Made by a program: the position numbers and the translations under genes. 48,339 bases of DNA, taken from assembly GCA_947628775.1 (NCBI GenBank), contig CANRBI010000003.1, positions 1 to 48,339 of the forward strand, in the 5' to 3' direction. The stretch comes from an uncultured Clostridia bacterium (GTDB taxonomy: Bacteria; Bacillota; Clostridia; TANB77; CAG-508). The notes under the pieces are model-generated. The model was given only the letters and a program-made list of their open reading frames with translations. It was not told the origin of the DNA and ran no database searches. Within the stretch, counting starts at the first letter, position 1. The number at the start of each line of letters is the position of its first letter. Shown here one piece after another: positions 5,205 to 21,431 of this stretch.

Positions 5205-5212
5205 ATAACCTC

Positions 5213-6943
5213 CTATTTATCCAAATCAAAAATTAAATTAAAATCAATAAGTTTAGATAAGTAAATAGCACCATTTTTAGTTAAATGCCTGCAATCTTGA
5301 CTTATAAATTTATTATCATTTGTAAACACATTTACAGTACCATCACTATTTTGCAATAACTCTAATATATTAATATAATTATTTCCCCACTTTTTAGCAT
5401 ATTGTGTATTTAAATCTAAAATGTCTTTAGTTGGCAAAACTGTTTGTTTAAAGTAATTATCTAGATTTCTTCTAAAATAAAATCTTTCATTTGTTTTACC
5501 GAAATTTTTTGTACCTATTCCGAAAATTTTAGAAGTATCTACATTTTTTAATATAATTTCTGGAACTTCACTCTTATCACCATAAATTAAAACATAATCA
5601 CTTTTTTTAACTTCATCTTCATTTAATGTACTATAATCAAAATGATATTGAATGTTAAATTTTTCACTATAATTTGATTCAAGAATTATATTAGCAAAAT
5701 CTCTAGCAAAACTGTTACCGATTATTAATACATTGTATTTATCATTAATCTCAAAATTTTTATTATAATTATATATTCTATCACAATATTCTGCATGCAT
5801 ACCACGTGACACGTTTGTTTTTTCAATATCCAACTCTGGTACATTTCTTACTACACCAGCGTTTAAATATACTAAAAATGAAAGCACTATGATAAATATA
5901 TCAGTTAGAATCAACGATAGTATATATAATGGTTTTTTGTTATACCTTTTAGTAATTACCCTTTCTAATATATAATAGCTAATTAAAGAAACTATAATAG
6001 TTAAAATTAATGTTAAAATAATTGAGAAAACATTATCTATATCAGATACATAGCATCTATAAAACGCAAAAATAATCTGATGCCAAATATAAAAACTATA
6101 TGTTTTTTCACTTATAAAATTCCATACTTTAGAGCCAATGTTAAATTTATTATCTAATAGTATAATAAATCCTGTTAGAAACACAGTTAAAATTAAATTC
6201 AAACCACCATCGAGTATAGTTGGAAAAACTGTTAGCATTAATATTAAAATAATTCTTGAACAAATTCCAACAATGCTTTTTAAATTATCATTTAATTTGA
6301 ATTTTTTTGAAAAGCTATAACAAAGACCACCTATTAAAAATTCAAATAATCTAAATGGTAAATAGTAAAATTTATAATATTCCGGGATAGAAGGAATAAA
6401 ATATAGTACTAAAGATATTCCCGCTATTATAGATAATACTATTTTTATATTTAATTCATAATTACCTTTTTTGGACTTCTTTTTAATAAGTCTCATTATG
6501 AAAGGAAATATTAAATAAAATTCAACTAATATTCCCAAATACCACAAATGGTATAGAGGTTTATAAGAGTTAACGATATCCCAATAATTTTTAGTAGTTA
6601 AAGCAGATAATATATTATTAGAAAAAAGATTTGAAGCTATAATTGATTCAGATAAATTTTCAAAATCATCTGGTAACATTCCAACAAATAATGCTATCAA
6701 AAAAGTCACTAATGTTCCCATTAATACTACTGGCATTAATCTAACTAATTTACCACAAAAGAAATCTTTATATGAAAATTTTTCTTCATCATTCTTTTTA
6801 GCTAATGATTTAGTTGTTAAAAAACCTGCAACAACCAGAAATATATCTACTCCTAAATAACCATTTTTTAATAAATCCATATGAAATAATATAACAGCAA
6901 TTATAGCTATAGTTTTCAGGAAATTTATATCGTTTCTTTTCAT
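5213..6943 (-). CDS. Acyltransferase family 3 membrane protein with C-terminal SGNH-like domain (OafA/YrhL-type O-acyltransferase)
   Basis: The N-terminus 'INFLKTIAIIAVILFHM' followed by multiple TM segments matches acyltransferase_3, and a soluble extension of about 200 aa follows. The start was moved to the internal ATG at 6943, which abuts the fnlB stop. The track ORF starts at 6994. Confidence 0.7.
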   Translation of the reverse strand: MKRNDINFLKTIAIIAVILFHMDLLKNGYLGVDIFLVVAGFLTTKSLAKKNDEEKFSYKDFFCGKLVRLMPVVLMGTLVTFLIALFVGMLPDDFENLSESIIASNLFSNNILSALTTKNYWDIVNSYKPLYHLWYLGILVEFYLIFPFIMRLIKKKSKKGNYELNIKIVLSIIAGISLVLYFIPSIPEYYKFYYLPFRLFEFLIGGLCYSFSKKFKLNDNLKSIVGICSRIILILMLTVFPTILDGGLNLILTVFLTGFIILLDNKFNIGSKVWNFISEKTYSFYIWHQIIFAFYRCYVSDIDNVFSIILTLILTIIVSLISYYILERVITKRYNKKPLYILSLILTDIFIIVLSFLVYLNAGVVRNVPELDIEKTNVSRGMHAEYCDRIYNYNKNFEINDKYNVLIIGNSFARDFANIILESNYSEKFNIQYHFDYSTLNEDEVKKSDYVLIYGDKSEVPEIILKNVDTSKIFGIGTKNFGKTNERFYFRRNLDNYFKQTVLPTKDILDLNTQYAKKWGNNYINILELLQNSDGTVNVFTNDNKFISQDCRHLTKNGAIYLSKLIDFNLIFDLDK

Positions 6944-6944
6944 T

Positions 6945-8054
6945 CTATACCTCCATAAAATAAGTATCTGGTTTATTTGGGTCAAATACTTCATTTGCCC
7001 ACATTATTGTTACCATATCTGTATCGCCAATGTTTTCTATATTATGTGTGTAACCACATGGTATATCTACTATTTCTATCTTATCTCCACTAACTTTATA
7101 TTCTATCACTTCATTAGAATCTATTTTTCTAAATCTAATTATTCCCTTTCCTGAAACTACAACAAACTTTTCGTTTTTAGTATGGTGCCAGTGGTTTCCT
7201 TTGGTAATACCTGGTTTTGAAATATTTACTGAAACTTGCCCTCTTTCTTGTGTTTTAAATAATTCTGTGAAAGATCCTCTTTCGTCTATGTTCATCTTTA
7301 CTTGGTAACTAAATTCATCTTTTGGCAAATAGCTTAAATATGTGCTATATAATTTCTTTTCAAATCCATCTTGCATGTTTGGTAGTTGTAAACTTTTTCT
7401 TGAATCTCTAAAACTTTCTATTAGTTTTGCTATTTCTCCCAATTTTATTGTATGTGTTACTGGTATAAATCCATAACCTTTTTCTATGCTTGCATTTCCA
7501 TTCATAGCATTTATAAATTCTTCTAATACATCATCTATGTATGCTAAGTTCATTACTACTTCTGGGTCATTTATTTTTATTGGTAAGTTGTTTGCTATAT
7601 TGTTGCAAAATGTTGCAACTACACTGTTATAGTTTGGTCTACACCATTTACCAAATAAATTTGTAAGTCTATATACATATACTTTTACGTTATTTTCTTT
7701 AGAGTAATTAAACATTAAATCTTCGCCAGCTTTTTTAGATTTTCCATAAGGATTATCTAATTTTGCTTGTATTGATGATGTTATTAATATTGGGCTTTTG
7801 TTATTATTCTTTTTTAGGTTATCTAATAAGGTAGAAGTAAAACCAAAATTCCCTTTCATAAAGTCTTCTTCATTTTCTGGTCTATTTACACCTGCTAAGT
7901 GGAATACAAATTCACACTGCTTTGTATATTCTTCTAATTCTTGTTTAGTTGTATCTATATCGCACTCAAAAATTTCATTATAATTTCTATTTTTTAATTC
8001 TGCTACTAGATTTTTTCCTACAAAACCTTTAGCACCTGTTACTAAAATTTTCAT
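6945..8054 (-). CDS. fnlB: UDP-2-acetamido-2,6-dideoxy-beta-L-talose 4-dehydrogenase/reductase, FnlB/CapF type (SDR plus C-terminal cupin)
   Basis: 369 aa. The N-terminus 'MKILVTGAKGFVGKNL' is a Rossmann fold, and the C-terminal 'GITKGNHWHHTKNEKF' is cupin-like as in Cap5F. The gene is adjacent to fnlA. Confidence 0.8.
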   Translation of the reverse strand: MKILVTGAKGFVGKNLVAELKNRNYNEIFECDIDTTKQELEEYTKQCEFVFHLAGVNRPENEEDFMKGNFGFTSTLLDNLKKNNNKSPILITSSIQAKLDNPYGKSKKAGEDLMFNYSKENNVKVYVYRLTNLFGKWCRPNYNSVVATFCNNIANNLPIKINDPEVVMNLAYIDDVLEEFINAMNGNASIEKGYGFIPVTHTIKLGEIAKLIESFRDSRKSLQLPNMQDGFEKKLYSTYLSYLPKDEFSYQVKMNIDERGSFTELFKTQERGQVSVNISKPGITKGNHWHHTKNEKFVVVSGKGIIRFRKIDSNEVIEYKVSGDKIEIVDIPCGYTHNIENIGDTDMVTIMWANEVFDPNKPDTYFMEV

Positions 8055-8071
8055 AATTTTTCTCCAATCTT

Positions 8072-9136
8072 TTAGTTTGCTCCAAATAATTCATTTGCTC
8101 TTGTTTGAGCATTACCTGTGTTTATATTTTTTAATTCGTTTTGTATGTAATCTAGTTTTAATAGTTTTTCTTTTACTTGTTCAACATTTAATAAATCTGT
8201 ATTATTTGAATTAAATTCTGTTAGTTTATTTCTTTCTTCATTTCCTTCTACATAATATTTATCATAATTTAAGTCTCTTTTATCACATGGTACTCTATAG
8301 AAATTTCCCATATCTATTGCATGTACACATTCTTCATTTGTTAATAATGTTTCATACATTTTTTCTCCATGTCTTATTCCTATTATTTTTGTTTCTTGGT
8401 GTGCTACTCCAAACAATTCTTTTACTGCTTGTGCTAATACTTCTATTGTACAAGCAGGTGCTTTTTGTACCATAATGTCTCCTGCATTTGCATTTTGAAA
8501 TGCAAATACTACAAGTTCTACCGCTTCTTCTAGGCTCATTATAAATCTTGTCATTTTTGGTTCTGTAATTGTTAATGATTTTCCTGCTTTTATTTGTTCA
8601 ATAAATAAAGGAATAACTGAACCTCTTGAACACATTACATTTCCATATCTTGTTGCACATATTGTTGTTTTTTCAGGGTCTACTGTTCTTGATTTTGCAA
8701 CTATTACTTTTTCCATCATTGCTTTAGATGTTCCCATTGCATTTACTGGATATGCAGCTTTATCTGTTGAAAGACATATTACTTTTTTTACTCCTTCTTC
8801 AATTGCTGCTGTTAATACATTTTCTGTTCCTAGTACATTTGTTTTTACTGCTTCTAATGGAAAAAATTCACAACTTGGTACTTGCTTTAGTGCTGCTGCA
8901 TGGAAAATATAATCAACTCCGTGCATAGCATTTTTTACACTTGGTAAGTCTCTGACATCTCCTATGTAGAATTTAATTTTATCGTTGTGATATTCTTTTC
9001 TCATATCATCTTGCTTTTTTTCATCACGTGAGAATATCCTTATTTCCCCTATATCTGTATCTAAAAATCTATTTAATACAGCATGTCCAAATGAACCAGT
9101 TCCTCCTGTTATTAATAATGTTTTTCCTTTAAACAT
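8072..9136 (-). CDS. fnlA: UDP-N-acetylglucosamine 4,6-dehydratase/5-epimerase, FnlA/CapE type
   Basis: 354 aa. 'LLITGGTGSFG...IRIFSRDEKKQDDMRKEY...FYIGDVRD...HAAALKQVPSCEFFPLEAVKTNVLGTENV...CLSTDKAAYPVNAMGTSKAMMEK' is near-colinear with staphylococcal Cap5E/CapE as I remember it. Confidence 0.9.
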   Translation of the reverse strand: MFKGKTLLITGGTGSFGHAVLNRFLDTDIGEIRIFSRDEKKQDDMRKEYHNDKIKFYIGDVRDLPSVKNAMHGVDYIFHAAALKQVPSCEFFPLEAVKTNVLGTENVLTAAIEEGVKKVICLSTDKAAYPVNAMGTSKAMMEKVIVAKSRTVDPEKTTICATRYGNVMCSRGSVIPLFIEQIKAGKSLTITEPKMTRFIMSLEEAVELVVFAFQNANAGDIMVQKAPACTIEVLAQAVKELFGVAHQETKIIGIRHGEKMYETLLTNEECVHAIDMGNFYRVPCDKRDLNYDKYYVEGNEERNKLTEFNSNNTDLLNVEQVKEKLLKLDYIQNELKNINTGNAQTRANELFGAN

Positions 9137-10352
9137 TTTGTTCCTCCTCTTTTATTCTTTTATATGCTCTCTCTAAAATTTCAACTGATTTTTCAGGTAT
9201 TAATTCAGTTTCTAAATATTTTCTTCCGTTGTTACCTAGCTTAGTTCTTAAATCTTTATTTTCTATTAATCTGTCAAATTGTTGTTTGAATTCTTTTATA
9301 TTATTAGATTCACACCATAAACCAACTTCATTTTTTTCTATAATATCTTTGTAGTCTGTATTTTTATCTGTTGCAGCCATTATTGGAATACTATTTTCAA
9401 AATATGAAAGTGTTCTTGATGGTATATTTGGAATTGTAAATCTGTAGTCTAAAAATACAAACCCTATATCTGCTTGTTGCAATATCTGAGAGTATTCATC
9501 TCTAGGAATAAAATCAAATATTATTGCATTTTCTATGTTGTTTTCTTTTATGTGATTTTCTAACTTTTTCTTTTCAGTCCCTTCTCCAAAAAATGCAAAA
9601 GTTACTTTTTCATTATCTTTATATTCATCTAATATTTTTTCTATAAATGAAACTCCTTGAGGTCTTCCAAAATTTCCACCATATATTGCTAATACTGTAT
9701 TCTTTGGAATTTTATATTTTTCTTTTATATTGCTATTATCTATAATCTTTTCTTGTGTACATTTCATTGTGTTTGGAAATATTTCTAGCTTGTCCTTTGT
9801 TAAATATTTATTATGTTTTAGTAGATAATCTATATTACCTTGTGACATACATCCAATCACAGTTGCTGTTTTATACATTCTCTTTTCTTTAAATCTAAAA
9901 TACCAATATGCTGGATTAATTTTGGTCATTATTTTTAAATCTATTGCGTTTTGTGGGAATATATCCTTTTGCATTAAATATGACATTGCATCGTATTTTT
10001 TCATTGCAAACTTAATCACACTTCCTAAAGTTATCGGTGGAGCCATAAAAAGTATTAAATCAAATTGTTCATTTGGTAAAAACTCTTTTATTGCTTTTTT
10101 TAATTTACTTTGCAAAGTTATAAATGAAATTGCTTTTTCTATAATACTTACATTATATAAGTTACCTGTTTTTACTCTTAAACATTCAATTTCTCGTTCA
10201 ATAGTTATTTGGGTTTTTTCAATTTTTCTTTTTTCTGTTGCCACAACTATTTTTATATTATACTTTTTTGCTATTTCTTCTGCTAAATCTGTATATATAT
10301 TATCTCCATCTTTTTCAAATGGAAATGATGGTGTTATGTACAATACTTTCAA
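9129..10352 (-). CDS. Glycosyltransferase GT4 family (WbuB-like, possible L-FucNAc transferase)
   Basis: 407-aa GT-B-like ORF located immediately upstream of fnlA, as WbuB/Cap5L-type transferases usually are. Confidence 0.6.
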   Translation of the reverse strand: MKVLYITPSFPFEKDGDNIYTDLAEEIAKKYNIKIVVATEKRKIEKTQITIEREIECLRVKTGNLYNVSIIEKAISFITLQSKLKKAIKEFLPNEQFDLILFMAPPITLGSVIKFAMKKYDAMSYLMQKDIFPQNAIDLKIMTKINPAYWYFRFKEKRMYKTATVIGCMSQGNIDYLLKHNKYLTKDKLEIFPNTMKCTQEKIIDNSNIKEKYKIPKNTVLAIYGGNFGRPQGVSFIEKILDEYKDNEKVTFAFFGEGTEKKKLENHIKENNIENAIIFDFIPRDEYSQILQQADIGFVFLDYRFTIPNIPSRTLSYFENSIPIMAATDKNTDYKDIIEKNEVGLWCESNNIKEFKQQFDRLIENKDLRTKLGNNGRKYLETELIPEKSVEILERAYKRIKEEEQNV

Positions 10353-10363
10353 TTTTTTCTCCT

Positions 10364-11422
10364 TTATTCTCTGTATTCTGGAAAAAAGTTTGAGTTGGCA
10401 TTAAAGTCTTTTTCTTTTTTCCTTATATTCAATAATTCATTATATTTTTCTTTATTAAATATCTTTTTACCTATATAAAAACTTAATAATTCTGATTCTT
10501 TATTAAATGCTTTTTTAAATTTTAATAGTGGGCTATTATCTCCTCCATATCCTCCACCTAGATGAAATTTTTTATATCCTTTATTGCATAAATCTATTGC
10601 AGCCTCATATAATGATAGGTTGTTTGCACCTAAATTCATACACTCTGTTAGAGAACCACTTAAGTGATAATGTGCATTTTCTCCACTATATATTGCTATA
10701 AGTGAATTTATAGCTTTATTATTAGAATAAGCTGTATATATAGTTGCATTATTATTCATTTGGGTATATATGCTATTGAAAAATTCATTTGTAAAATAAT
10801 AATAATCTGTTGCATTATCTCTGTTCATTGTTTCTTTGTATAATTCTATAAATTCATCATACATTTCTTTATTAAATCCTGATTTAACAATCACTTCATT
10901 ATTTTTTGCTTTTCTAATTTTATTTCTACATTTGCTTTCCATGTCATTCCATATTTGTTCTTCATTTTCTAATTTTATATATACAGTTTTTGAAATTCTT
11001 TCTATCTGATAATTTGTATTTGTATAAAATTCATTATTATTACTTAAAGGATTTAATCTCACAAACTCTGAAATTATATTATTGTTGATACAATATTTAT
11101 CAAATTCATTAAAGAAGTATTGTAGTAATTTATCGTCTTTTTCTCCAATAATATCAACTCCTCCATAACCATAAGGAGTTATTATGTCAAAATATTTATT
11201 TTTTTCAATCTTATTTTCAAAGTTTTTATCATCTGCAATATCTCTTTTCAAATAAACATTGAAGACATAATTATCTTCGTTTTTTGCATATATTAAAAAT
11301 GGTTCTCCATCTCCATTTTTATAAAAAGCATCTACATATTCCCATTGATAATATATTTCTTTATCTTTTACTATTTCTTTCCATTTATCTTTTTCCGAAA
11401 AATTTATTATTTTATATTTCAT
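10364..11422 (-). CDS. FemAB-like / Acetyltransf_6 (GNAT-fold) family protein
   Basis: About 352 aa. 'ITPYGYGG', 'CRNKIRKA' and 'YHLSGS...LGANNLSLYEAAIDLCNKGYKKFHLGGG' resemble FemX/FemAB-type aminoacyl or acyl transferases. The start was set at ATG 11422. The track ORF begins at a TTG at 11434. Confidence 0.55.
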   Translation of the reverse strand: MKYKIINFSEKDKWKEIVKDKEIYYQWEYVDAFYKNGDGEPFLIYAKNEDNYVFNVYLKRDIADDKNFENKIEKNKYFDIITPYGYGGVDIIGEKDDKLLQYFFNEFDKYCINNNIISEFVRLNPLSNNNEFYTNTNYQIERISKTVYIKLENEEQIWNDMESKCRNKIRKAKNNEVIVKSGFNKEMYDEFIELYKETMNRDNATDYYYFTNEFFNSIYTQMNNNATIYTAYSNNKAINSLIAIYSGENAHYHLSGSLTECMNLGANNLSLYEAAIDLCNKGYKKFHLGGGYGGDNSPLLKFKKAFNKESELLSFYIGKKIFNKEKYNELLNIRKKEKDFNANSNFFPEYRE

Positions 11423-11459
11423 TATTTGTCTCAACTTCTCCTCTACTTTTGCTTACACT

Positions 11460-12509
11460 TTATAATATATTGTCTATAATGTTTATATAATAAGCTATAT
11501 CTGTAGTTGTATATCTTTGATCACATATCAAAGATAATTCTAAATTATATATATCTTTTTGGCATTTTTCTTTTAATTGTTTGGGTATTTCCCAATGGTT
11601 AGCAAAGTATATATTATTTTCTATTAATTTTATTTTTAATTCATTTCTTTTTTGGTTGTTTAAAAATATCGGTACAAATAAAGGTGTATCTTCTTTCAGA
11701 TTTATATTTTTTAAATATTCAATCTTGTTTTGATTTTTTAAATATTCATAAATTGCTTCTGCATTGTTTCTTCTTTTGTTAATAACTTCCTTTATATCCA
11801 TATTTGTTAAAATACTGTATGATTTTTGATCCATATTGTAATTTTTATAATCTTCATTTAAGATTTCTTCAGCTTTTGAAAATTCTTTCAAAAATTCTTC
11901 TTTGTTGTTTTGATTTTCATTTGATATATATATTTTTTTCTCTATCATTGCGTGTTCTTTTAAATTTATGTATTTTTTATTATCTTGTAATTTGCTTGTA
12001 TCTAAATGTTTACTAGTATTATTTATAAGTACTCCTCCACTCATAATAGGAAACCATTTTCTTAAACTTGCTACTATAAAATCTGAATTTTTATTATATT
12101 TTCTTTCAGATAATAAACTGTGTGTCATATCTTCTATTACACATACATTTTTATTTCTAAATTTTTCTATAAAATAATCCATTCCATATTGTGAAAATCC
12201 AAAATAATTCATTGCAAAGAAAATATCGCATTCTTTTTCACAGTCTATTTCGTAAATCAATTGTCCTTCTTTAAAACTAACAGTGTAAAAATCAATATCT
12301 ATATTTCTTTCTATAAAAGGGTCTATCATTGACTGACAACAATATGATGGAAAATATACTTTATTTATTTTTTTGCTATGTTGTATAGTATTTAATGCAT
12401 AATCTATGGCTGTTCTTCCTGATAGTAAAAATACTTTTTTATTATCACTTTTCACTTTTTGTTGTTCAATCTTATTATCTTCTAGCCAATACTCACTTCC
12501 TATTTCCAT
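11460..12509 (-). CDS. Divergent DegT/DnrJ/EryC1-like PLP-dependent enzyme (tentative)
   Basis: 349 aa. 'LLSGRTAIDYAL' and 'SLRKWFPI' (candidate PLP lysine) fit the layout of a fold-type I sugar aminotransferase-like protein. The similarity is weak. Confidence 0.4.
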   Translation of the reverse strand: MEIGSEYWLEDNKIEQQKVKSDNKKVFLLSGRTAIDYALNTIQHSKKINKVYFPSYCCQSMIDPFIERNIDIDFYTVSFKEGQLIYEIDCEKECDIFFAMNYFGFSQYGMDYFIEKFRNKNVCVIEDMTHSLLSERKYNKNSDFIVASLRKWFPIMSGGVLINNTSKHLDTSKLQDNKKYINLKEHAMIEKKIYISNENQNNKEEFLKEFSKAEEILNEDYKNYNMDQKSYSILTNMDIKEVINKRRNNAEAIYEYLKNQNKIEYLKNINLKEDTPLFVPIFLNNQKRNELKIKLIENNIYFANHWEIPKQLKEKCQKDIYNLELSLICDQRYTTTDIAYYINIIDNIL

Positions 12510-13042
12510 TGTTCTTTTATCTCCTCATATTGTTTTTTTAGGATTGCAATTTGCACTTCATCTATGTATCTATTGTTTTTAAATACTGACTCTTTTAATG
12601 TTCCTTCTATTTCCCAACCACATTTTTTATGTAACTTTATTGAAACTTCATTGTGTTCTAGTATAGTAGTATATAACTTATTTAATTGTAGTTCTTCAAA
12701 AGCATATTTCATTATAGTTTTTAATGTGTCTGTACCATATCCTTTTCCTCTTATTTTTTCATTGTATAATTTTATTCCATGACAAGCTTTTCTATTTTTC
12801 CAATCAATATCGGTTAATGTTTCTAATCCTATTGGACTTCCTTCTAATTCAATTATGCATCTTATACTGTCAGTATTATTTATTTGACTTTCAAACCATT
12901 TATCTTGTTCATATTTAGAAATGGGAAAACTCCATCCTCCTACTTGCCTTTCCATTGTTTCATCGTTTATCATTGTTCTTAGAAATTCTATGTCTTCTTT
13001 TTCTATTGCTCTTAAAAGAATTTTTTTACCTTTTAAATTCAT
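12500..13042 (-). CDS. GNAT family N-acetyltransferase (RimJ/RimL-like)
   Basis: 180 aa. 'IRGKGYGTDTLKTIMKYAFEEL.LNKL' is an acetyl-CoA binding motif A-like segment. The start ATG overlaps the reconstructed stop of the upstream transferase (ATGA). Confidence 0.75.
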   Translation of the reverse strand: MNLKGKKILLRAIEKEDIEFLRTMINDETMERQVGGWSFPISKYEQDKWFESQINNTDSIRCIIELEGSPIGLETLTDIDWKNRKACHGIKLYNEKIRGKGYGTDTLKTIMKYAFEELQLNKLYTTILEHNEVSIKLHKKCGWEIEGTLKESVFKNNRYIDEVQIAILKKQYEEIKEQWK

Positions 13043-13670
13043 TTTTCCACCTTTACTTTCATTCTTCTATATTCGTCAAAGTCTATAGCTTCTCCAATTC
13101 CGCGTTCTCCTATATCTTGTTTTTTTAAAACTTTTCCTATGGTTCCGTAATATTATTTTTAAATCATTTTTTAATGTTATTTGATTTATGTACTCAATAT
13201 CGTATTTAAATTTATCATCCCATGATATGTCATTTCTACCACTTATTTGTGCCAAACCTGTAAGTCCGAGGTCTAACATCGTGTCTATGTTTTTCTTCTT
13301 CTGTGTAATATGATAAGTATTGTACTCTTAATGGTCTTGGTCCTACTATTGCCATATTGCCTTTGAGGATATTGATTAATTCTGGCAATTCATCCAAACT
13401 TGTTCTTCTTAGTATTTTTCCAAATTTGGTTAAACGTTTTGAATCTGGTAATAAATTGCCATTTTCATCTTCTTCATCTGTCATTGTTCTAAATTTATAT
13501 AGTGTAAATATTTTTTCATTTTTGCCAGGACGCTCTTGTTTGAATATTGCTGGTTTGCCTAGTTTTATTCTTACTAATATGTACAAAATTAACATCACTG
13601 GACTTAAAACAATTAAAGCCAATAAACTTAATACAAAGTCCAATATTCGCTTTATGTATTTTTGATACAT
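13039..13670 (-). pseudogene. PglC/WbaP-C-type undecaprenyl-phosphate sugar phosphotransferase (priming PGT), disrupted by two +1 frameshifts
   Basis: Track ORFs 13236..13691 and 13076..13279 plus a third frame together rebuild one about 205-aa small PGT. Frame one gives 'ILDFVLSL..KPAIFKQERPGKN..F.LYKFRTM...DELPELINILKGNMAIVGPRP...HRHDVRP'. Frame two gives 'GLTGLAQISGRNDISWDDKFKYDIEY...DLKIIL'. Frame three gives 'TIGKVLKKQDIGERGIGE...*'. The frame changes lie at about 13265-13271 and about 13141-13146. Confidence 0.8.
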
Positions 13671-13683
13671 TGAACTTCCCCCA

Positions 13684-14811
13684 TTATTCAAATAATTTTT
13701 TGATTATTTCAATTATCATTTTTTGTTGTTCTTCTGTCATTTTTGTATCAGATGGTAAACATACTCCTCTTTCAAATAAGTCTTCTGATACTGCTTTTTC
13801 AGCTACTTTTATAAAGTCATATTTTTCAAATATTGGTTGTAGATGCATTGGTTTCCATACAAGTCTTGCTTCTATATTTTCTTTTTCTAGATTTTCTACT
13901 ATATCTAGTGGTTTTACTTTTGATGTTTCTTTTATTGTCATTGTTGAAAGCCAATGGTTTGATCTTTCATATTCTTTGTCTTCATTCATTTTTATTTCGT
14001 CTATTTCTTCAAATGCTTTTTTGTAGTTTTCAAATATTTTTCTTTTTTTAGCTATTCTTTCTTCTAGAACTTTCATTTGTCCTCTACCAATTCCTGCTAG
14101 TACATTGCTCATTCTGTAGTTGTATCCTATTTCTTCATGTTGATAATATCTTGCTGGCTCTTTGCTTTGTGTTGACCAAAACTTTGCTTTTTTTGTTATT
14201 TCTTCATTATTTGAAATAAGCATTCCACCACCTGTTGTAGTTATTATCTTATTTCCATTAAATGAAAGTACTCCACAATTTCCATATGTTCCTAAAAATT
14301 TATTTTTATATTTTACTCCTAGTGCTTCTGCTGCATCTTCTAAAATTGGTACATTATGTTTTTTACATATTTCACATATTTCGTCTATTTCTGAAATTCT
14401 TCCATATAAATGAACTACAACTACTGCTTTGGGATTTGGATATTTTTCAAATGCCTTTTCTAAAGCTTTTGGATCCATATTCCATGTTTGTGGTTCACTA
14501 TCTATAAATATTGGTTTTGCGTTTTCATATATTATTGGATTTACACTTGCTGAAAATGTTAAGTCTGATACAAATACATAATCATTTTTTGTAACTCCTA
14601 ATGCTTTTAATCCTAAATGTATTGCTGATGTTCCGCTTGCTAATGCGATTGCTGATTTTACTCCTAAATATTTTTTTACACTTTCTTCAAATTGATTGAT
14701 GTTTTCTCCTACTGTTGATAGCCAATTTGTATCAAATGCTTCTTTTACATATTTTCTTTCATATCCTTCATCAGACATATGTGGTGAAGCTAAATATATT
14801 TTTTCGCTCAT
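13684..14811 (-). CDS. DegT/DnrJ/EryC1/StrS family sugar aminotransferase (PglE/EpsN-like, UDP-4-keto-6-deoxy-HexNAc 4-aminotransferase)
   Basis: 375 aa. 'ASPHMSDEGYE..YV.EAFDTNW' and 'LSFNGNKIITTGGGGM' (PLP lysine region) are typical of the family. Confidence 0.85.
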   Translation of the reverse strand: MSEKIYLASPHMSDEGYERKYVKEAFDTNWLSTVGENINQFEESVKKYLGVKSAIALASGTSAIHLGLKALGVTKNDYVFVSDLTFSASVNPIIYENAKPIFIDSEPQTWNMDPKALEKAFEKYPNPKAVVVVHLYGRISEIDEICEICKKHNVPILEDAAEALGVKYKNKFLGTYGNCGVLSFNGNKIITTTGGGMLISNNEEITKKAKFWSTQSKEPARYYQHEEIGYNYRMSNVLAGIGRGQMKVLEERIAKKRKIFENYKKAFEEIDEIKMNEDKEYERSNHWLSTMTIKETSKVKPLDIVENLEKENIEARLVWKPMHLQPIFEKYDFIKVAEKAVSEDLFERGVCLPSDTKMTEEQQKMIIEIIKKLFE

Positions 14812-16676
14812 TTACTTTCCCCTCGTTCCTTATATGTTGGCACTATTTCCTTCATAACTTTTTTAATTTCTTCTTTTTGTTCATTATTACTATTTTTCAA
14901 AACTTCTCTAAGTTTTTCTAATTTGCTTTCTACCTCTTCAACAGTTATTTCTGAAGGTGGTGCTATGTATATTTTTTCATGTTTTGTTTCTTCTAAGTTT
15001 TCTTCTGCCATTAATAATTCTTCGTATAGTTTTTCTCCTGGTCTTAGTCCTGTTATTTTTATTTGTATATCTACATTTGGTTCTAATCCTGAAAGTCTTA
15101 TTAGATTTTCTGCCATATCGTAGATTTTTACAGGTTCACCCATATCTAAAACAAATATTTCTCCACCTTTTGCATAACTCATAGCTTGCAATACTAATGA
15201 TACTGCTTCTGGTATTGTCATAAAGAATCTTGTTATTTCTTTATCTGTTACTGTTACTGGTCCTCCTTGGGCTATTTGTTTTTTGAATAATGGTATTACT
15301 GAGCCATTGCTTCCTAATACATTTCCAAATCTTACTGCTGCATATTCTGTTTGACTTGTTTTATTTTTTGCTTGAACCATCATTTCGCATAAACGTTTTG
15401 TTGCTCCCATGATATTTGTGCTATTTACAGCTTTATCGGTAGAAATTAATATAAATCTTTTTACATTGAATTCGTCTGCACAGTTTACTACGTTATATGT
15501 TCCAAATACATTATTTTTGATTGCTTCTAATGGACTTGTTTCCATTAATGGTACGTGTTTATGTGCTGCTGCATGAAATACTAGATATGGTTTAAATCCT
15601 GCAAACACTTCATCTAACCTTTTTTTATCTCTTACACTTGCTACTATTGCTTGTATATCTTTTTCTGGGTAATTGTATTTTAGTTCTTGTTCTATGTCAT
15701 ATAAATTGTTTTCATATATATCTAAGATTACTAGTTTAGATGGATTGAATTTTATTATTTGTCTACATAGTTCTGAACCTATTGATCCTCCTCCACCTGT
15801 TACTAGTACTACTTTTTCTTTAATTAATTCTTTTATGTCTTTATTGTTTAATTTTATAGATTCTCTTCCTAACAAATCTTCTATCTCTACATCTCTAAAA
15901 TTATCCATTAGGGCTTTGTTTCTTATTAAATCTTGTGTACCTGGTAAGATTCTTACTTTGCACCCTGTTTGTTGACATATTTGCAATATATCTTTTCTGT
16001 CTTGGTTTGAAATGTTTGATATTGAGAATAGTATTAATTCTACATTATTCTCTTTGCATATTTCTGGTATGTCTTTTCGTGTTCCTAATATTCTGTTTCC
16101 TGATATTGCATAGTTTACTTTGTTTATGTTGTCATCTATTAGTCCTACTACATTGTATATGTCTCTAAATGTAGTTTTTAATGTTCCTAATACTATTTTT
16201 GTTGCTTCTCCTGCACCTATTATTAGTACATTTTTTCTCGCATTTTCGTTTTCATTTACTTTGTATTTTTTATATCCACCATTTAATATAAATCTTAAAA
16301 TTACTCTGTAACTTATTATTGATACTATAATTAATAATGTTGCGATTGCATTTATTCTATGATTGACAATACTATTTCCAAAGAAAATTTTTAGTATTGA
16401 AATTATTATGTAAGAAACTAAACATGCTAGTATATATACTAGATAATCGTTTCCATTTTCATATCTTGTAATATTTTTGTATGTTTTGAAAACTGTTAAC
16501 ATTGTTGTATATACTATTACTGCTGGAATTAATGTTGTTATTACTTGCTTTGCAAGTTTTGGATTAAATGCTAATGTGTTTTCTAAAATAAGTACGGTAA
16601 TACAATAAGAAACTATTATTATAAAGATATCTATTATTCTTAATATTACATTTCTATGCTTCCTTAATTCCCTCAC
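14808..16676 (-). CDS. Polysaccharide biosynthesis protein CapD/EpsC/PglF type (membrane-anchored UDP-HexNAc 4,6-dehydratase)
   Basis: 622 aa with N-terminal TM segments. Motifs include 'VLVTGGGGSIGSEL', 'VFHAAAHKHVPLME' and 'STDKAVNSTNIMGATKRL'. It has a GTG start preceded by a GGGAGA RBS and is the first biosynthetic gene of the operon. Confidence 0.85.
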   Translation of the reverse strand: MRELRKHRNVILRIIDIFIIIVSYCITVLILENTLAFNPKLAKQVITTLIPAVIVYTTMLTVFKTYKNITRYENGNDYLVYILACLVSYIIISILKIFFGNSIVNHRINAIATLLIIVSIISYRVILRFILNGGYKKYKVNENENARKNVLIIGAGEATKIVLGTLKTTFRDIYNVVGLIDDNINKVNYAISGNRILGTRKDIPEICKENNVELILFSISNISNQDRKDILQICQQTGCKVRILPGTQDLIRNKALMDNFRDVEIEDLLGRESIKLNNKDIKELIKEKVVLVTGGGGSIGSELCRQIIKFNPSKLVILDIYENNLYDIEQELKYNYPEKDIQAIVASVRDKKRLDEVFAGFKPYLVFHAAAHKHVPLMETSPLEAIKNNVFGTYNVVNCADEFNVKRFILISTDKAVNSTNIMGATKRLCEMMVQAKNKTSQTEYAAVRFGNVLGSNGSVIPLFKKQIAQGGPVTVTDKEITRFFMTIPEAVSLVLQAMSYAKGGEIFVLDMGEPVKIYDMAENLIRLSGLEPNVDIQIKITGLRPGEKLYEELLMAEENLEETKHEKIYIAPPSEITVEEVESKLEKLREVLKNSNNEQKEEIKKVMKEIVPTYKERGESK

Positions 16677-16740
16677 TATTATCTCCCACTTATTTTCAAA
16701 TTTTTGGATTCTACTGCCTTTGAATATTTTTACTTCTTTA

Positions 16741-16832
16741 TCTATGCATTTTCAGCATAGAATTGCGATATTCAACACAAATACATTAACATGTAGTTAA
16801 TGTACTCACCTATATGTTTGTTTTCATATAGG
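16741..16832 (-). ncRNA. Structured intergenic RNA candidate: three tandem stem-loops between the TnpB-like stop and the glycan operon
   Basis: Hairpin 1: 16809-16816/16825-16832, 8 bp, cctatatg/catatagg. Hairpin 2: 16782-16790/16796-16804, 9 bp, tacattaac/gttaatgta, followed on the minus strand by UUUGUGUU. Hairpin 3: 16741-16747/16755-16761, 7 bp. The function is unknown and could be a guide-RNA scaffold, an attenuator or an IS right-end relic. Confidence 0.3.
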
Positions 16833-16834
16833 AT

Positions 16835-18070
16835 TTATATTTTTATTCCGTATTTTCTTAAGCTTTCTAGTGCTACATTCATTGCGTAGTTGAAGTAGTA
16901 GTCCATTTGGTGACCATTTTCACATTTGGTTTTTAGCTTTCGGCTTTGTATTTCTCCTCCACATTTGTAGCATTTGCTTGCTTTGTCTTTTCTTGGTACT
17001 ATTGTTGATAGTATTCCTTTTCGAAATGCTTTGTAGTTTATGTAGTTTGTTATGTTTTCACGTAAATATATTGGTCTGTTTTTTTTACTTTTTGTGTAGT
17101 AGTATGCTTTGTCTTTAGTTGATAATGCTGTTGATATTACTTGTACGTGGTTTTGTATGCAGAAGTCTATTATTTTTTTGCTTATTACATGTGAGTAGTA
17201 ATTTATTATTTGGTTTGTTTTTTTGCGGTAGTTCTTGTGGTTGTTGTTTGTTTGTTGTATTTCTTTGTTGTTTAAGATGTTTCGCTTTTGTTTGTTTAAT
17301 ATTTTTGTTATTTGATTTTTGTATTCATTTCCTCCTGATACAAATAGTGTTTTTATGACTTTTCCTTGTCTGTCTATTACTACACATGTTGCTACTTTGT
17401 CTGTGTTTGAAAATGCTATTCCACATACTCGGACATTTTCGTCTTTCATTCTTTCTTTTATTGGGGTTATATCATCTATTTTTCTTTTTACTGGTATGTG
17501 TGCCATTACATAGTCTTTGTTTATTACTATTGTTGGTGATTGTATTTGGGCATTTTCTGGAAAGTTCCAGTTTTTGAATTTTGCTTTGTACCATCTCCAT
17601 TTTTCGCCATCATATAGTTTGATTTCTACTGTTCCATTTGGTTCTATGTTTTTGTACATACCTTTGTAAAATGTTGTTGAACAATTAAAAGTTGTTGCTT
17701 TGTTTGGTTTTTTTTGTTTTGGGTTTTCTTTTGCTTTTTTTGATAGTTCTGTGTATGATTTTGCTAGACCTATTGCATGATTTATTGCTGCTCGTCTTAA
17801 TTCTGTTGGAGCATTTTGATCAAAATATTCTGGTGGTCTCTCCCCTGTTAATCCTATAATTGTTAGTTTTTCTAGTTCTCTCATACATTTTTGATTTGAT
17901 AGAGTTAGTAGTTCGTCATATTTGAATATTAAATTGTAGTATATTTCTATCAGTTCATTGTATATTTGTTGAGTTAGTTTTAGATATTCTAGGTTGTTTG
18001 TGTAAAATCTTATTTTATAGGTTGTTGTGTATGTTCCACTCTTTTTATTGTTCTTGGTTGGTTCTGACAT
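16835..18070 (-). CDS. TnpB-like (IS200/IS605 OrfB / Cas12-ancestor family) protein, apparently lacking the RuvC catalytic triad
   Basis: The N-terminus 'YKIRFYTN' is a WED-like start. The RuvC-I position reads 'VCGIAFSN' instead of GIDLG. The RuvC-II position reads 'VQVISTALS' instead of hhhEDL. The zinc ribbon is 'CYKCGG..(13)..CENGH'. The RuvC-III position reads 'MDYYFNYAMNVA' instead of DxDxNAAxNI. The start was set at ATG 18070, preceded by a GGGAGA RBS. The track start at 18094 lies inside the inverted repeat. Confidence 0.65.
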   Translation of the reverse strand: MSEPTKNNKKSGTYTTTYKIRFYTNNLEYLKLTQQIYNELIEIYYNLIFKYDELLTLSNQKCMRELEKLTIIGLTGERPPEYFDQNAPTELRRAAINHAIGLAKSYTELSKKAKENPKQKKPNKATTFNCSTTFYKGMYKNIEPNGTVEIKLYDGEKWRWYKAKFKNWNFPENAQIQSPTIVINKDYVMAHIPVKRKIDDITPIKERMKDENVRVCGIAFSNTDKVATCVVIDRQGKVIKTLFVSGGNEYKNQITKILNKQKRNILNNKEIQQTNNNHKNYRKKTNQIINYYSHVISKKIIDFCIQNHVQVISTALSTKDKAYYYTKSKKNRPIYLRENITNYINYKAFRKGILSTIVPRKDKASKCYKCGGEIQSRKLKTKCENGHQMDYYFNYAMNVALESLRKYGIKI

Positions 18071-18091
18071 CTTTTTCTCCCATATTTTAGT

Positions 18092-18112
18092 CATAAAGTA
18101 TAGAACTTTACG
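18092..18112. repeat. Left 21-bp inverted repeat (IR-L): cataaag-tatagaa-ctttacg
   Basis: Its reverse complement matches 19274-19294 at 20 of 21 positions. Each copy is itself two 7-bp inverted arms around an asymmetric 7-bp spacer, and the spacers are in opposite orientation. Confidence 0.7.
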
Positions 18113-18122
18113 ACTACAAATT

Positions 18123-18151
18123 ATTTTATCATAAATTTGTTAATATTGCAA
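18123..18151 (-). promoter_or_regulatory. Near-consensus sigma-A type promoter facing out of the IR-bounded segment toward the TnpB-like gene
   Basis: The minus strand reads TTGCAA (18151-18146), a 17-nt spacer, then TGaTAAAAT (extended -10, hexamer 18128-18123). The predicted TSS is around 18115, about 3 nt from IR-L. Confidence 0.55.
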
Positions 18152-18249
18152 CATATTTCGACATTTTTTCTTCCAATTTTCACAAAAATCCTTTATATTT
18201 GAATTGCAAGTATTTCTTGTAATTCATTTAAAAGGAGGTGGATATCAAA

Positions 18250-19167
18250 ATGAGTTTGATAAATAAAAGAAAACTTTTTAAAACAGCTGTTAAAAGATGG
18301 CTTTTATTCAAAAAATTTTCTATTAAATCTTCTACATATTATAGATATAAATATATCATTAATAAATATATTATTCAATATTTTGGAAATAAAAATATAT
18401 ATTTTTTTGTAAATTATGATTTTAATATTTATATAGAACGTTTATCAAAAACTCTTTCACCTAAGACTGTGACTGATATAATTATAGTTTTAAAATCAAT
18501 TTTAAAATATATTGAGCAGAAATATAATGTACATTATAACTTAGACTTAATTTGTACTCCAAAAAAGAAGATGTGTGAAGTTAAAGTATTGAAAAAAGAT
18601 GAAGTAGAAAGACTTGAACAGTTTTGTATAAAAAGTTTTAATCCAAAATATATAGGTATATTAATTTGTTTAAATACAGGATTACGTATAGGAGAAATTT
18701 GTGCTTTGACTTGGAAAGATATAGATTTAGAGGAAAAACTGATAACTGTTAATAAAACTGTTCAACGTGTATACAAAGGAAAAAATAATACAGAAGTACA
18801 AATAGATGAGCCTAAGACTTATCATTCTATTAGAAAAATCCCTATTTCTAATAAGCTTCTAAGAGTTTTAAAAAATTTAAAAAAAGCAAAAAATTTTAAT
18901 GATGATTTATATTTTTTAACTGGTACAAATAAATTTATAGAGCCACGCTGTTATTATTATATTTTTAAAAATTGTTTGCAGTTATGTAATATTCCTAATT
19001 ATAACTTTCATGTATTACGACATACTTTTGCGACAAATTGTATAAAAATTGGGATGGATGCAAAATCTTTAAGTGAAATTTTAGGACATTCTAATGTTAG
19101 CATAACATTAAATAGATATGTTCATTCTTCTTATTCTATTCAAAAAGAGTTTTTGGATAAGCTATAA
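18250..19167 (+). CDS. Tyrosine site-specific recombinase (phage-integrase/Xer-like family)
   Basis: About 305 aa. It has an N-terminal SAM-like core-binding region. The catalytic region carries 'GLRIGEICALTWKDID' (Arg I), 'HVLRHTFATN' (HxxR) and 'LGHSNVSITLNRYVH' (His/Tyr). The ATG at 18250 lies 11 nt after AGGAGG. The track start is a GTG at 18238. Confidence 0.85.
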   Translation: MSLINKRKLFKTAVKRWLLFKKFSIKSSTYYRYKYIINKYIIQYFGNKNIYFFVNYDFNIYIERLSKTLSPKTVTDIIIVLKSILKYIEQKYNVHYNLDLICTPKKKMCEVKVLKKDEVERLEQFCIKSFNPKYIGILICLNTGLRIGEICALTWKDIDLEEKLITVNKTVQRVYKGKNNTEVQIDEPKTYHSIRKIPISNKLLRVLKNLKKAKNFNDDLYFLTGTNKFIEPRCYYYIFKNCLQLCNIPNYNFHVLRHTFATNCIKIGMDAKSLSEILGHSNVSITLNRYVHSSYSIQKEFLDKL

Positions 19168-19178
19168 CAATATAAAAG

Positions 19179-19212
19179 CCAATAGAACTAATTTTGTTTT
19201 ATTGGTTTTTTT
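19179..19212 (+). terminator. Rho-independent terminator of the recombinase gene
   Basis: A 10-bp stem ccaatagaac/gttttattgg (one G-U pair) with a 7-nt loop is followed by T7. Confidence 0.7.
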
Positions 19213-19273
19213 ACGTTTTAGGTTGTTTTTAATATCACCTTAATTTCTTTAAATATCAGTATTTATGCTGTTT

Positions 19274-19294
19274 CGTAAAGTTCTATACTTTACG
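19274..19294. repeat. Right 21-bp inverted repeat (IR-R): cgtaaag-ttctata-ctttacg
   Basis: It is the inverted partner of 18092-18112 (20/21 identical). Together they bracket a 1161-bp segment holding the recombinase gene, its terminator and the outward promoter. Confidence 0.7.
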
Positions 19295-19326
19295 AAATTT
19301 TTGATTTTAAGGTTTAATTATTTCAT

Positions 19327-19356
19327 AAAAAAAAATATATACAATTTGTATATATT
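19327..19356 (-). terminator. Rho-independent terminator after the rho-HEPN-MNT unit
   Basis: A perfect 11-bp A/T palindrome (19334-19344/19346-19356) is followed on the minus strand by a U-run (A9 on the plus strand, 19327-19335). Confidence 0.55.
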
Positions 19357-19371
19357 CTTTCATATATATTT

Positions 19372-19692
19372 TTAAGCAACTTTTATACCTGTATTTATAA
19401 CTTCTTGAACAAATGGTGTACTAGCATTATTATAGTCTTCTGTCCTGATTGGGTGTGGCTCTATCCTTGTATCAATTTTCCATGTGAATCCAATTAAATC
19501 CGCACCATCTTGAATAATATTTTTAAAGTCACTTGATATTATTGCTATATCAATATCACTTTCCTCATTTTCTGTTCCTTTTGCATATGAACCAAATAAT
19601 ATAATAGCATCGATATTGTAATATTGTTTGATTATATTTATGTACTTTTCTATTGAATCCATTATTTCTGTGCTAATAATTTTTTTAGCCAT
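19372..19692 (-). CDS. Minimal nucleotidyltransferase (MNT / NTP_transf_2)
   Basis: 'ILFGSYAKGTENEESDIDIAII' is the GSx10-12(D/E)xD polymerase-beta-like NTase motif. An internal ATG at 19662 overlaps the HEPN stop (TAATG) and may be the real start. Confidence 0.8.
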   Translation of the reverse strand: MAKKIISTEIMDSIEKYINIIKQYYNIDAIILFGSYAKGTENEESDIDIAIISSDFKNIIQDGADLIGFTWKIDTRIEPHPIRTEDYNNASTPFVQEVINTGIKVA

Positions 19693-20063
19693 ATTCGTAC
19701 CTCCTCAATATTTTTAATTTGATTACTTGTATATTCTTCTGTACAAATCTTATAGAATTCATCTTTATAATCTTCATATCTAGTACTTATATTAAATTGT
19801 GTTATTATTTTTAATTTTTCTACCTGTTCATCTGTTAGTTCAAGATTACATTTTTGTGCTAGTGCTAATAAATTATGTGATTTTATTGTGTATGGATTGT
19901 CTTCATTATATTTTGCAAATAATCCTTTTAATAATTTTTCTATTGCTAAATGACCGATGAATAAAGACCATGTAAATTGCTTTACTTCAAAATTCTTTTT
20001 CATAGCTTCATAATCTCTGTCAGAACTATTTATCCAATAATCCATTAAATCTTTATAATCCAA
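19662..20063 (-). CDS. HEPN domain protein (NTase-associated HEPN)
   Basis: 133 aa. 'SDRDYEAMKKNFE...GHLAIEKLLKGLFAKY....KSHNLLALAQ...STRYEDY' fits the HEPN helical pattern. It has a TTG start 8 nt after an AGGAGG that directly follows the rho stop. Confidence 0.7.
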   Translation of the reverse strand: MDYKDLMDYWINSSDRDYEAMKKNFEVKQFTWSLFIGHLAIEKLLKGLFAKYNEDNPYTIKSHNLLALAQKCNLELTDEQVEKLKIITQFNISTRYEDYKDEFYKICTEEYTSNQIKNIEEVRIWLKKLLAQK

Positions 20064-20075
20064 TATTTTTTCCTC

Positions 20076-21431
20076 CTATTTATATAATTTCAAATACAAC
20101 TCCATATTGTTTATAAATTCTTCATTTGTTTTTGTTTCTGTCATTTTTTTGATTACTTGTTCGGTTACTTCGGTTACTGATAGGCTGCTCATGGCTTTAC
20201 GTAGGGCAAATACTGTTTCTTTTTCTTTTGGGGTTAGTAGTAGGTCTTCTCGTCTGGTTCCGGATTTGTTTATGTCGATTGCTGGGAATATTCGTTTTTC
20301 TGATAGTTTGCGGTCTAGGTGTACTTCCATGTTTCCTGTTCCTTTGAATTCTTCGAATATTACGTCGTCCATTCTGCTTCCTGTATCGATTAGGCCTGTT
20401 GCTAGTATTGTTAGACTACCTCCATACTCTATGTTACGGGCTGCTCCAAAGAATTTTTTTGGTTTGTGTAGTGCTGCTGGGTCTAGTCCTCCTGATAGTG
20501 TTCTTCCTGATGATGGTATTACTAGGTTGTAGGCTCTTGCTAGTCTTGTGATACTGTCTAGTAGTATTACTACATCTTTTCCGTGTTCTACTAGTCTTTT
20601 GGCTCTTTCTAGTACCATTTCTGCAACTTTTACGTGGTGTTCTGGTAGTTCGTCAAATGTTGAGTATATTACTTGTCCTTTTATTGATCTTTTCATATCT
20701 GTTACTTCTTCTGGTCTTTCGTCTATTAGTAGTACTAGTAATTCTACTTCTGGATTGTTTGTGGTTATGCTGTTTGCAAATTTTTTAAGTAAGGTTGTTT
20801 TTCCTACTTTTGGTGGAGCTACTATCATTCCCCTTTGCCCTTTTCCTATTGGGCTTATTAAATCTATTAGTCTCATTGCATATTCATTTGGTACTGTTTC
20901 TAGTTTTAGTTTTTCATCTGGATATATTGGTGTTAGTTCATCAAATCTTCTTCTTTTTGCTGCTTTTTCTGGGTGCTCTCCATTGACTTCTCCTACAAAT
21001 ATTAGTGATGGGAATTTTTCTCCTTCACGGTATCTTGATATTCCTTTTACTACATCTCCTGTATCAAGTTTGAATCTTTTTATTTGTACCATAGAAAGAT
21101 ATACGTCTTTTGGTGTTGATAGATAGTTTTCTCCTCTTAAGAATCCATATCCATCTGGTAGTATGTCTAGTATTCCTTCTACTATTTCATCTCCTTCGTT
21201 TGTTAGCTTATAGTCTACTATTGGTTCTCCATTTGCATCATATTGGGTTGGGTTTGCAGGTATCCTTTCTTCTTGTATAGTTGTGCCTTTTTCCTCTGTT
21301 CCTGTTTGTTTTGATATTTGACTTAGTATTTCGATTAATTCCTCTTTTTTTAGTTTAGAAACGTTTTTTATATTCTTTTCTTTTGCTAAAGTACGTAAAT
21401 CTACTAGAGACATTGCTTCTAGTTCTGGCAT
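20076..21431 (-). CDS. rho: Transcription termination factor Rho
   Basis: 451 aa with an N-terminal SAP-like '[26 protein letters not shown]'. It also has a cold-shock-like RNA-binding domain, the Walker A motif '[18 protein letters not shown]' and '[26 protein letters not shown]'. Confidence 0.97.

Follow-up and report, generated by a model that had tools for sequence, protein, structure and literature searches.

In the stretch of DNA analysed here, a contig of 48,339 nucleotides from an uncultured Clostridia bacterium (CANRBI010000003.1; hereafter the window), we studied a segment of 1205 bp (18091 to 19295, with no strand assigned) that is bounded by two inverted repeats and holds, from left to right, the left repeat (IR-L), a predicted outward promoter (P_out), a tyrosine recombinase gene, a terminator and the right repeat (IR-R). 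On the IR-L side lie, all on the minus strand, a gene for a nuclease-dead protein resembling TnpB and Cas12f, a conserved structured RNA and a surface-polysaccharide (glycan) operon; on the IR-R side lies a convergent unit formed by a pair of MNT (nucleotidyltransferase) and HEPN genes together with rho.

The two repeats are built as recombinase core sites. IR-L (18091 to 18113) reads TCATAAAG, spacer TATAGAA, CTTTACGA, and IR-R (19273 to 19295) reads TCGTAAAG, spacer TTCTATA, CTTTACGA; neither is assigned a strand. A repeat search of the window gave 23 nt for each, 22 of the 23 positions being reverse-complementary (96%), with 1159 nt between them. Each site consists of two inverted 8-bp arms around a non-palindromic 7-bp spacer, the spacers of IR-L and IR-R are mutually reverse complements, and the arms of IR-R extend to a perfect 10-7-10 site (TTTCGTAAAG and CTTTACGAAA, 19271 to 19297). 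Inverted arms of 8-10 bp, an asymmetric 7-bp spacer and matching partner spacers are the marks of a lox/FRT-type core site. An earlier note on this DNA, made from the letters and without database searches, had described 21-bp repeats with 7-bp arms and a 7-bp spacer; repeats and spacer were found as described, but the arms measure 8-10 bp and the repeat is one base longer on each side.

As expected of an inverton, the inverted-repeat pair that bounds the segment is unique in the window: allowing up to three mismatches, the 23-mer occurs in these 48 kb only as IR-L and IR-R (100 shuffles gave 0 matches), and the arm-N7-arm pattern with up to two mismatches was found at the same two places only, 0.09 occurrences being expected. 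When metagenome contigs were scanned with the 17-nt core TAAAGTATAGAACTTTA, only chance single matches and two CRISPR-like arrays were returned, none with a full site pair or a recombinase. The 21-mer is therefore not the dispersed palindromic repeat which the earlier note had named as the case against its reading, there being no further copies in the window and only chance-level matches in the metagenome scan. The two arrays belong to unrelated metagenome contigs (L041, at 32 to 264, and L123) and have a period of 72 bp, their repeat containing the 17-nt core TTCATAAAGTATAGAACTTTATGAAC; they look like CRISPR arrays, and their likeness to the sites was treated as chance.

Orientation was read from low-coverage (2-5x) metagenome assemblies and an Eubacterium callanderi genome, and these confirm that inversion occurs in natural sequence variants, both orientations being present between the same flanks in L003 compared with the window, in L002, and in L213 and L214 compared with L211. 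L003 is a 1450-nt contig from another sample, its recombinase being 97% identical in amino acid sequence to that of the window, and has the order rho 3' end (+), site, recombinase (+), site, start of the TnpB-like gene (+). By BLAST, positions 233-1437 of this contig are collinear with window 18091-19292, while positions 1-161, 169-255 and 1418-1450 match window 20237-20077, 19360-19273 and 18113-18081 in reverse; with 1206 bp in the centre collinear and both flanks reversed, the segment has been flipped between the same flanks. The sole mismatch of the repeat pair (A against G, at position 3) remains with the TnpB-side flank after inversion in L003 as well as in L002, which places the exchange inside the site, to the segment side of position 3. 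In L002, which encodes a 100% identical recombinase, the TnpB-side flank is found on both ends of the segment, the last 54 nt of the contig being the reverse complement of window 18060-18113; since one molecule cannot carry both of these junctions, both orientations gave reads to that assembly. For another element, P0006, an identical recombinase protein is present in six contigs and both orientations occur across samples: positions 453-1603 of L211 are collinear in L213 and L214, with both flanks reversed and swapped, at more than 99.6% identity. These natural flipped variants bear out the earlier expectation that two tyrosine-recombinase core sites in opposite orientation would lead to inversion and not to excision.

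The gene inside the segment (18250 to 19167, plus strand) encodes a protein of 305 amino acids from ATG 18250, with Pfam Phage_integrase and SAM-like N-terminal domains; its match to PF00589 (3.9e-31, 108.6 bits, cutoff 27.1) identifies it as a tyrosine recombinase. The catalytic hexad is intact, R146, K189, H254, R257, H280 and Y290 being invariant among 26 homologues. Among solved structures the nearest match is to the catalytic domain of Tn1549 Int (6EN0, E 8e-24), and Y290 aligns to an Int position with Y in 6EN0 but F in chain 6EMY, which does not differ from it elsewhere; neither Cre nor Flp appeared among the PDB matches, and neither is closer than other tyrosine recombinases. A 309-amino-acid version with a GTG start was also considered and is absent from public records, the 305-amino-acid ATG version being on record in public assemblies. 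The NCBIfam models for tyrosine-type DNA invertases score far below cutoff (NF007370 32.9 bits and NF007371 29 bits, against cutoffs of 221-222), and the recombinase is therefore not of the FimB/FimE type; nor does it belong to the Hin/Gin class of serine recombinases with a resolvase/invertase domain. Of the 120 best-matching recombinase homologues, about one quarter have been recovered solely on contigs of 1.0-1.6 kb, close to the cassette in length, which fits assembly breaks at the repeats but is weak evidence because short contigs are normal in that collection.

Relatives of the cassette were taken from a scan of one genome per species, their sites being located with a repeat script and by direct reading. 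The relatives in that scan are at most 64% identical and come nearly all from uncultured gut Clostridia (rabbit, Hadza, ruminant and chicken samples). Within the nearest clade, sites of the same design flank the recombinase gene itself, and the arms CGTAAAG and CTTTACG are conserved in the window and in L128, L130, L133, L135-L137, L211, L216 and L225. The spacers between these arms are all different (TATGTAA in L128, TTGAAAA in L130, TCTAATA in L133, TTAATTC in L135, TTAAATA in L136, TATATAG in L137, TTATGTA in L211 and TTAGATA in L216), yet within a locus they are reverse complements of each other in all nine of those loci where both sites were read. Constant arms with spacers that are locus-specific but matched are as expected of recombinase-binding arms around a free overlap region. 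More distant homologues (~50% identity) adjoin classic invertons of 150-190 bp with CTTTAAG-N7-CTTAAAG arms (L149, L152, L153, L161, L165 and L169), and the L139 cassette has arms of the CGTGAAAT type; arm sequence thus tracks recombinase phylogeny, a sign that the cognate enzyme is the one embedded or encoded alongside, and we infer that the recombinase encoded inside the segment is the enzyme that acts on its sites.

Two of these relatives deserve separate mention. In L152 (5895-6111 and 7408-7622) four CTTTAAG-N7-CTTAAAG sites lie near one sister-clade recombinase and form two small invertons, so that a single recombinase probably serves several switches there. In L139 (1028-2109) a cassette of the same design lies beside a gene for a 506-amino-acid protein (2310-3830) with an N-terminus that resembles a prepilin signal, as judged by eye only; if this neighbour is indeed of prepilin type, the cassette type would not be confined to glycan operons.

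Just inside IR-L, on the minus strand, the earlier note had read an outward promoter, TTGCAA-N17-TGaTAAAAT, and this is found at 18151-18123 (P_out, 18123 to 18151, predicted transcription start near 18116) with an equivalent at the corresponding position of every one of the 11 cassettes compared. In all 11, a TTGnnn-N16-18-TAnnnT motif ends 8-18 nt away from the repeat within the segment, on the outward strand and at the end upstream of the recombinase gene; such a motif turns up in 10% of 70-nt windows of background sequence, from which a binomial P of about 1e-11 follows, and at the other cassette end it occurs in one of the 11. Moreover, every cassette with a known neighbour has on one side an outward-pointing gene that starts about 20 nt past the repeat, too close for a separate promoter in between. 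This arrangement suggests that P_out is active and that it serves as the main promoter of the operon, and the conserved position supports the earlier proposal that the sequenced orientation would be ON for the TnpB-like gene and the glycan operon. In this sense the window, L133, L136, L137, L208, L213 and L214 were assembled in the ON orientation, and L128, L130, L135, L209-L212, L215 and L216 in the OFF orientation. A further motif, TTTCGAC or TTTCGTC, is present at window 18156-18162, about 45 nt inside IR-L and just upstream of the -35 element of P_out, and is conserved at the same relative position in L128, L130, L133, L135 and L137; it resembles the outer part of the arm (TTTCGT) and could be an accessory recombinase half-site or part of a recombinase promoter.

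At the opposite end of the segment the terminator scan placed an intrinsic terminator after the recombinase gene (19174 to 19220, plus strand), with a 15-pair stem at 19174-19210 followed by a T-rich tail; the strong terminator announced in the earlier note is thus present, and a hairpin with a T-run recurs at the same place in most relatives. The same scan found that IR-R itself forms a hairpin which, with a T-run supplied by the flank, is terminator-like (19270 to 19308, plus strand) on the non-operon side only. This asymmetry is shared, the non-operon flank having 6-10 T in the 12 nt after the site versus 1-6 on the operon side (8 loci with a known operon side). Between the switch and the convergent MNT-HEPN-rho unit there is in addition a putative bidirectional terminator (19325 to 19365, no strand), seen as the inverted repeat I6 and in the fold of the flipped-state transcript. 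At the flipped-state junction of L003 the fold gives a site hairpin of -9.9 kcal/mol, then a U-rich stretch and another strong hairpin, this one with U-runs, while the leader of the ON state folds into a hairpin without a U-tract. With the recombinase terminator and these stop structures on the rho side, an OFF operon would be shielded from recombinase read-through and the outward transcript would be ended early. Antisense transcription into the MNT-HEPN-rho unit, which the earlier note foresaw for the flipped state, is an unlikely function given the T-run hairpin and the bidirectional terminator; moreover, the MNT-HEPN pair (window 19361-20076) is a strain-specific indel absent from L003, where the rho terminator region leads directly to rho.

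The first gene that P_out would transcribe (16835 to 18070, minus strand) encodes a TnpB/Cas12f-like protein of 411 amino acids. The earlier note had observed that IR-L overlaps the longest possible start codon of this reading frame, and an ATG is indeed found in the outer arm (18094-18092), but the true start is probably ATG 18070, which has a ribosome-binding site, matches the 411-amino-acid gene calls and agrees with the alignment of homologues. The upstream ATG, in frame and eight codons before 18070, is created by the A/G mismatch in the outer arm of IR-L (18092-18094) and is probably incidental. The NCBIfam scores of the protein for Cas12f2 (6e-13) and TnpB (7e-8) are both below cutoff, and its precomputed Pfam assignment is PF27142. 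A search of the PDB with the single sequence gave no match; a profile of 24 sequences matched AsCas12f, TnpB and nuclease-deactivated Cas12f chains, with E-values from 5e-13 to 2e-4. In the RuvC motifs GIAFSN, VISTAL and DYYFN, the residues at I, II and III are A, T and Y instead of D, E and D, and conservation of the triad is lacking across the family; the cysteines of the zinc finger do not vary, and a histidine after them is present in at least 90% of the sequences. Profile matches and motifs together point to a relative of TnpB/Cas12f that has lost its RuvC residues, as expected of a TldR protein.

Just downstream of this gene lies a conserved structured RNA (16694 to 16836, minus strand) resembling a guide-RNA scaffold. 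From six loci RNAalifold predicted 36 pairs, 17 of them with compensatory changes, and a covariance model recovers the RNA next to TnpB-like genes from outside the seed, among them that of Eubacterium callanderi (45 bits) and two tandem gene-RNA pairs in L216 and L131. No Rfam family matches the RNA, and the Rfam search returned nothing for the region. The candidate guide that follows the closing helix, beginning GCAGTAGAATCCAAAAATTTG, has no match of 14 nt or more within the 48-kb window. In L211 (1833-4576), L216 (5247-7995) and L131, two tandem TnpB-like copies separate the switch from the glycan operon; each copy has an RNA of its own, and the sequence after the scaffold differs between them; in L137 the RNA (4613-4762, minus strand) is upstream of the TnpB-like gene, between repeat and gene, instead of downstream.

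Beyond the RNA, the surface-polysaccharide operon of about 17 kb (63 to 16676) has all of its open reading frames on the minus strand. Pfam scans identified a CapD/PglF-like dehydratase, a DegT aminotransferase, Bac_transf, acetyltransferases, GT1 glycosyltransferases, FnlA/B/C-like enzymes and an O-acyltransferase. The order cassette, TnpB-like gene with RNA, glycan operon recurs in L130, L135, L136, L137, L211 and L216; in L128, L210 and L212 the neighbour is TnpB-like and the contig ends at or within that gene, before the operon. The cassette of L133 faces a glycan operon directly, and that of L139 adjoins the pilin-like gene mentioned above.

A sister system was found in a cultured species, Eubacterium callanderi, in which a TnpB-like homologue (~31% identity) with its RNA heads a very similar glycan operon. 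The switch there is a segment of 383 bp (L227 6600-6982) that ends 18 nt before the ATG of the TnpB-like gene, its repeats (TCGYAGACT-N6-AGTCTGCGA, 24 nt) being 96% complementary, and the segment is inverted in GCA_046951535.1 (L230) compared with L227-L229. Within the locus retrieved, no recombinase gene lies inside or adjoining this switch. The order inverton, dead TnpB with RNA, glycan operon therefore extends from uncultured gut Clostridia to E. callanderi, with the recombinase inside only in the gut group, and the existence of an inverton without an embedded recombinase indicates that the link between inverton, dead TnpB and glycan operon is older and wider than the recombinase-inside layout.

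From the sequences and their comparison we consider it likely that the 1.2-kb segment is a phase-variation switch, in which the embedded recombinase inverts a segment carrying its own gene and P_out thereby toggles the operon ON and OFF. The 305-amino-acid recombinase would bind the inverted 8-10-bp arms of both core sites and exchange strands within the 7-bp spacers, with cleavage presumably at the spacer edges, and the segment of 1.2 kb, the recombinase's own gene included, would invert. In the ON state, which is the orientation of the window, P_out would start transcription about 3 nt inside IR-L and read through a site that lacks a U-tract into the TnpB-like gene (start 21 nt past the repeat), the conserved RNA and the polysaccharide operon of about 17 kb. 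In the OFF state P_out would face the rho side and meet the site hairpin with its T-run and then the bidirectional terminator; the recombinase gene would point at the operon and be halted by its own terminator.

Several observations weigh against this interpretation. Promoter-like sites are common in this AT-rich region (21 found, 24 expected) and the score of P_out is unremarkable, so that the case for it rests on its conserved position and not on its score; a second promoter may be present in the 158-nt gap before the first glycan gene. No convincing promoter was found for the recombinase gene itself, TTTCGAC fitting as a -35 element in only some loci. Recognisable flanking sites were not found at the close homologues L129, L132, L134 and L004 (P0004, 68% identity). 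The orientation data all come from assemblies, and two co-resident strains could lie behind L002; for the element P0011, each of the nine contigs has the OFF arrangement, a single orientation.

Four other explanations were considered. The one that fares best, although we regard it as improbable, is that inversion is real and that its output is something other than switching of the operon by P_out, namely recombinase dosage, antisense transcription of the MNT-HEPN-rho unit or a terminator switch like that of cwpV. The flipped P_out does point at the convergent unit, the sites do form hairpins, and the C. difficile cwpV switch acts through a terminator and contains no promoter (PMC2784873). However, L003, the flipped strain, lacks MNT-HEPN, gene content on the non-operon side varies between loci while the TnpB-like/glycan side is conserved, two terminator-like structures stand within about 100 nt on the non-operon side, and the position of the promoter is conserved in 11 of 11 loci.

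It is very unlikely, in our view, that the sites are served by a recombinase encoded elsewhere, of the host Xer or RecV kind, and that the embedded gene is a passenger. There is precedent, RecV not being near the cwpV switch that it inverts in C. difficile (PMC2784873), and the E. callanderi switch has no recombinase inside or adjacent in the locus retrieved; against this, arm sequence follows the phylogeny of the embedded or adjacent recombinase, and at least 11 loci keep the gene inside the repeats, its catalytic hexad intact. Less probable again is that the repeats are the termini of a small mobile element with a tyrosine-recombinase transposase, the two orientations being independent insertions. 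The cassette is compact and self-contained, it occurs in varied genomic contexts across species, and, among solved structures, the one most like its recombinase is a conjugative-transposon integrase; yet both orientations are found at exactly the same junctions in near-identical strains, with the exchange inside the site, the window has a single copy and the site core occurs only at chance level in the metagenome scan, neither an empty site nor a target duplication was seen, and the adjacent gene starts at a set distance from the outward promoter. Finally, we give almost no weight to the idea that the two orientations arise from misassembly or from rare RecA-dependent recombination of short repeats, a view that could draw on the 2-5x coverage of the metagenome contigs and on the chimeric look of L002, because the 23-bp repeats are shorter than the assembler k-mer implied by the 54-nt overlap and each junction therefore needs spanning reads, two elements and one E. 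callanderi genome show this pattern independently of each other, and neither the arm-spacer-arm design nor the co-variation of arms and recombinase is expected of RecA substrates.

A phase switch made of an invertible promoter is of a known kind; the new element is a tyrosine recombinase with lox/FRT-like sites in a Hin-like layout. In Salmonella, Hin acts on a segment of about 1 kb in which an end promoter drives the adjacent operon in one orientation, FljA, which represses the alternative product, being co-expressed with the structural product; Hin is a serine recombinase with 26-bp hix sites and a 2-bp crossover, and it needs Fis and an enhancer. As in the Salmonella H segment (fljBA), the recombinase gene here is inside a segment of about 1 kb with a promoter at one end, a position of the gene that has been noted for Hin (PMC2784873). 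Unlike Hin, the enzyme here is a tyrosine recombinase with arm-7 bp-arm sites, and the promoter is upstream of the recombinase gene and divergent from it, that of the Hin segment being downstream.

RecV, like the present enzyme, comes from the Clostridia (PMC2784873). The element resembles the switches of E. coli fim (FimB/FimE) and C. difficile RecV (cwpV, flg and cmr), where a tyrosine recombinase inverts a short segment with imperfect repeats and surface structures vary in phase; in those systems, however, the recombinase genes lie outside a segment of 200-300 bp, whereas here the gene is inside, and the promoter is also inside, unlike the cwpV switch, which has none. In Bacteroides capsular invertons an invertible promoter immediately precedes a polysaccharide operon that opens with regulator genes (UpxY/UpxZ). 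The present locus likewise has a predicted invertible promoter before a polysaccharide operon headed by a putative regulator, but in another phylum; the master invertase Mpi of Bacteroides is a serine recombinase encoded elsewhere, and the leader genes there encode a NusG-like antiterminator and an inhibitor, in place of the TnpB derivative and RNA found here. The 2-micron plasmid carries the FLP gene between inverted repeats that bear FRT. Cre/loxP and Flp/FRT share with our sites the two inverted arms around an asymmetric spacer, relative orientation deciding between inversion and excision, and differ in dimensions, with 13-bp arms and an 8-bp spacer against 8-10-bp arms and a 7-bp spacer. 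A search of the literature found no earlier tyrosine inverton with the recombinase inside, an absence that is weak evidence as coverage was incomplete.

With respect to the TnpB-like gene, the locus resembles TldR and dCas12f-sigmaE systems in having a gene for a TnpB/Cas12f-like protein without the RuvC triad, with a conserved structured RNA on its 3' side, beside an operon for a surface structure. Published TldRs adjoin fliC or oppF (10.1101/2023.11.30.569447); unlike these, the gene described here is linked to a glycan operon and to an inverton. No TldR-like genes linked to glycan loci, invertons or phase variation were found in the literature search, whose incomplete coverage makes this, too, weak evidence. 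We tentatively suggest, as one possibility that we hold rather doubtful, that the co-switched dead TnpB and its RNA form an RNA-guided repressor that silences rival surface-glycan loci, leading to expression of one at a time; such silencing would correspond in function to the action of UpxZ in Bacteroides and to that of FljA with Hin.

Invertible promoters before capsule loci are classic in Bacteroides and, to our knowledge, little characterised in gut Clostridia. Read-based inverton finders commonly limit the distance between repeats to a few hundred bp, and cassettes of the 1.2-kb class may for this reason be under-counted. With enzyme, sites, promoter and insulators all within 1.2 kb, the cassette is portable and could serve as a compact genetic toggle. 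Stochastic ON/OFF switching of a nuclease-dead, presumably RNA-guided TnpB relative that heads a glycan operon would extend TldR biology beyond flagellin and peptide transport to surface polysaccharides, an idea that is directly testable since the cultured E. callanderi has a sister system.

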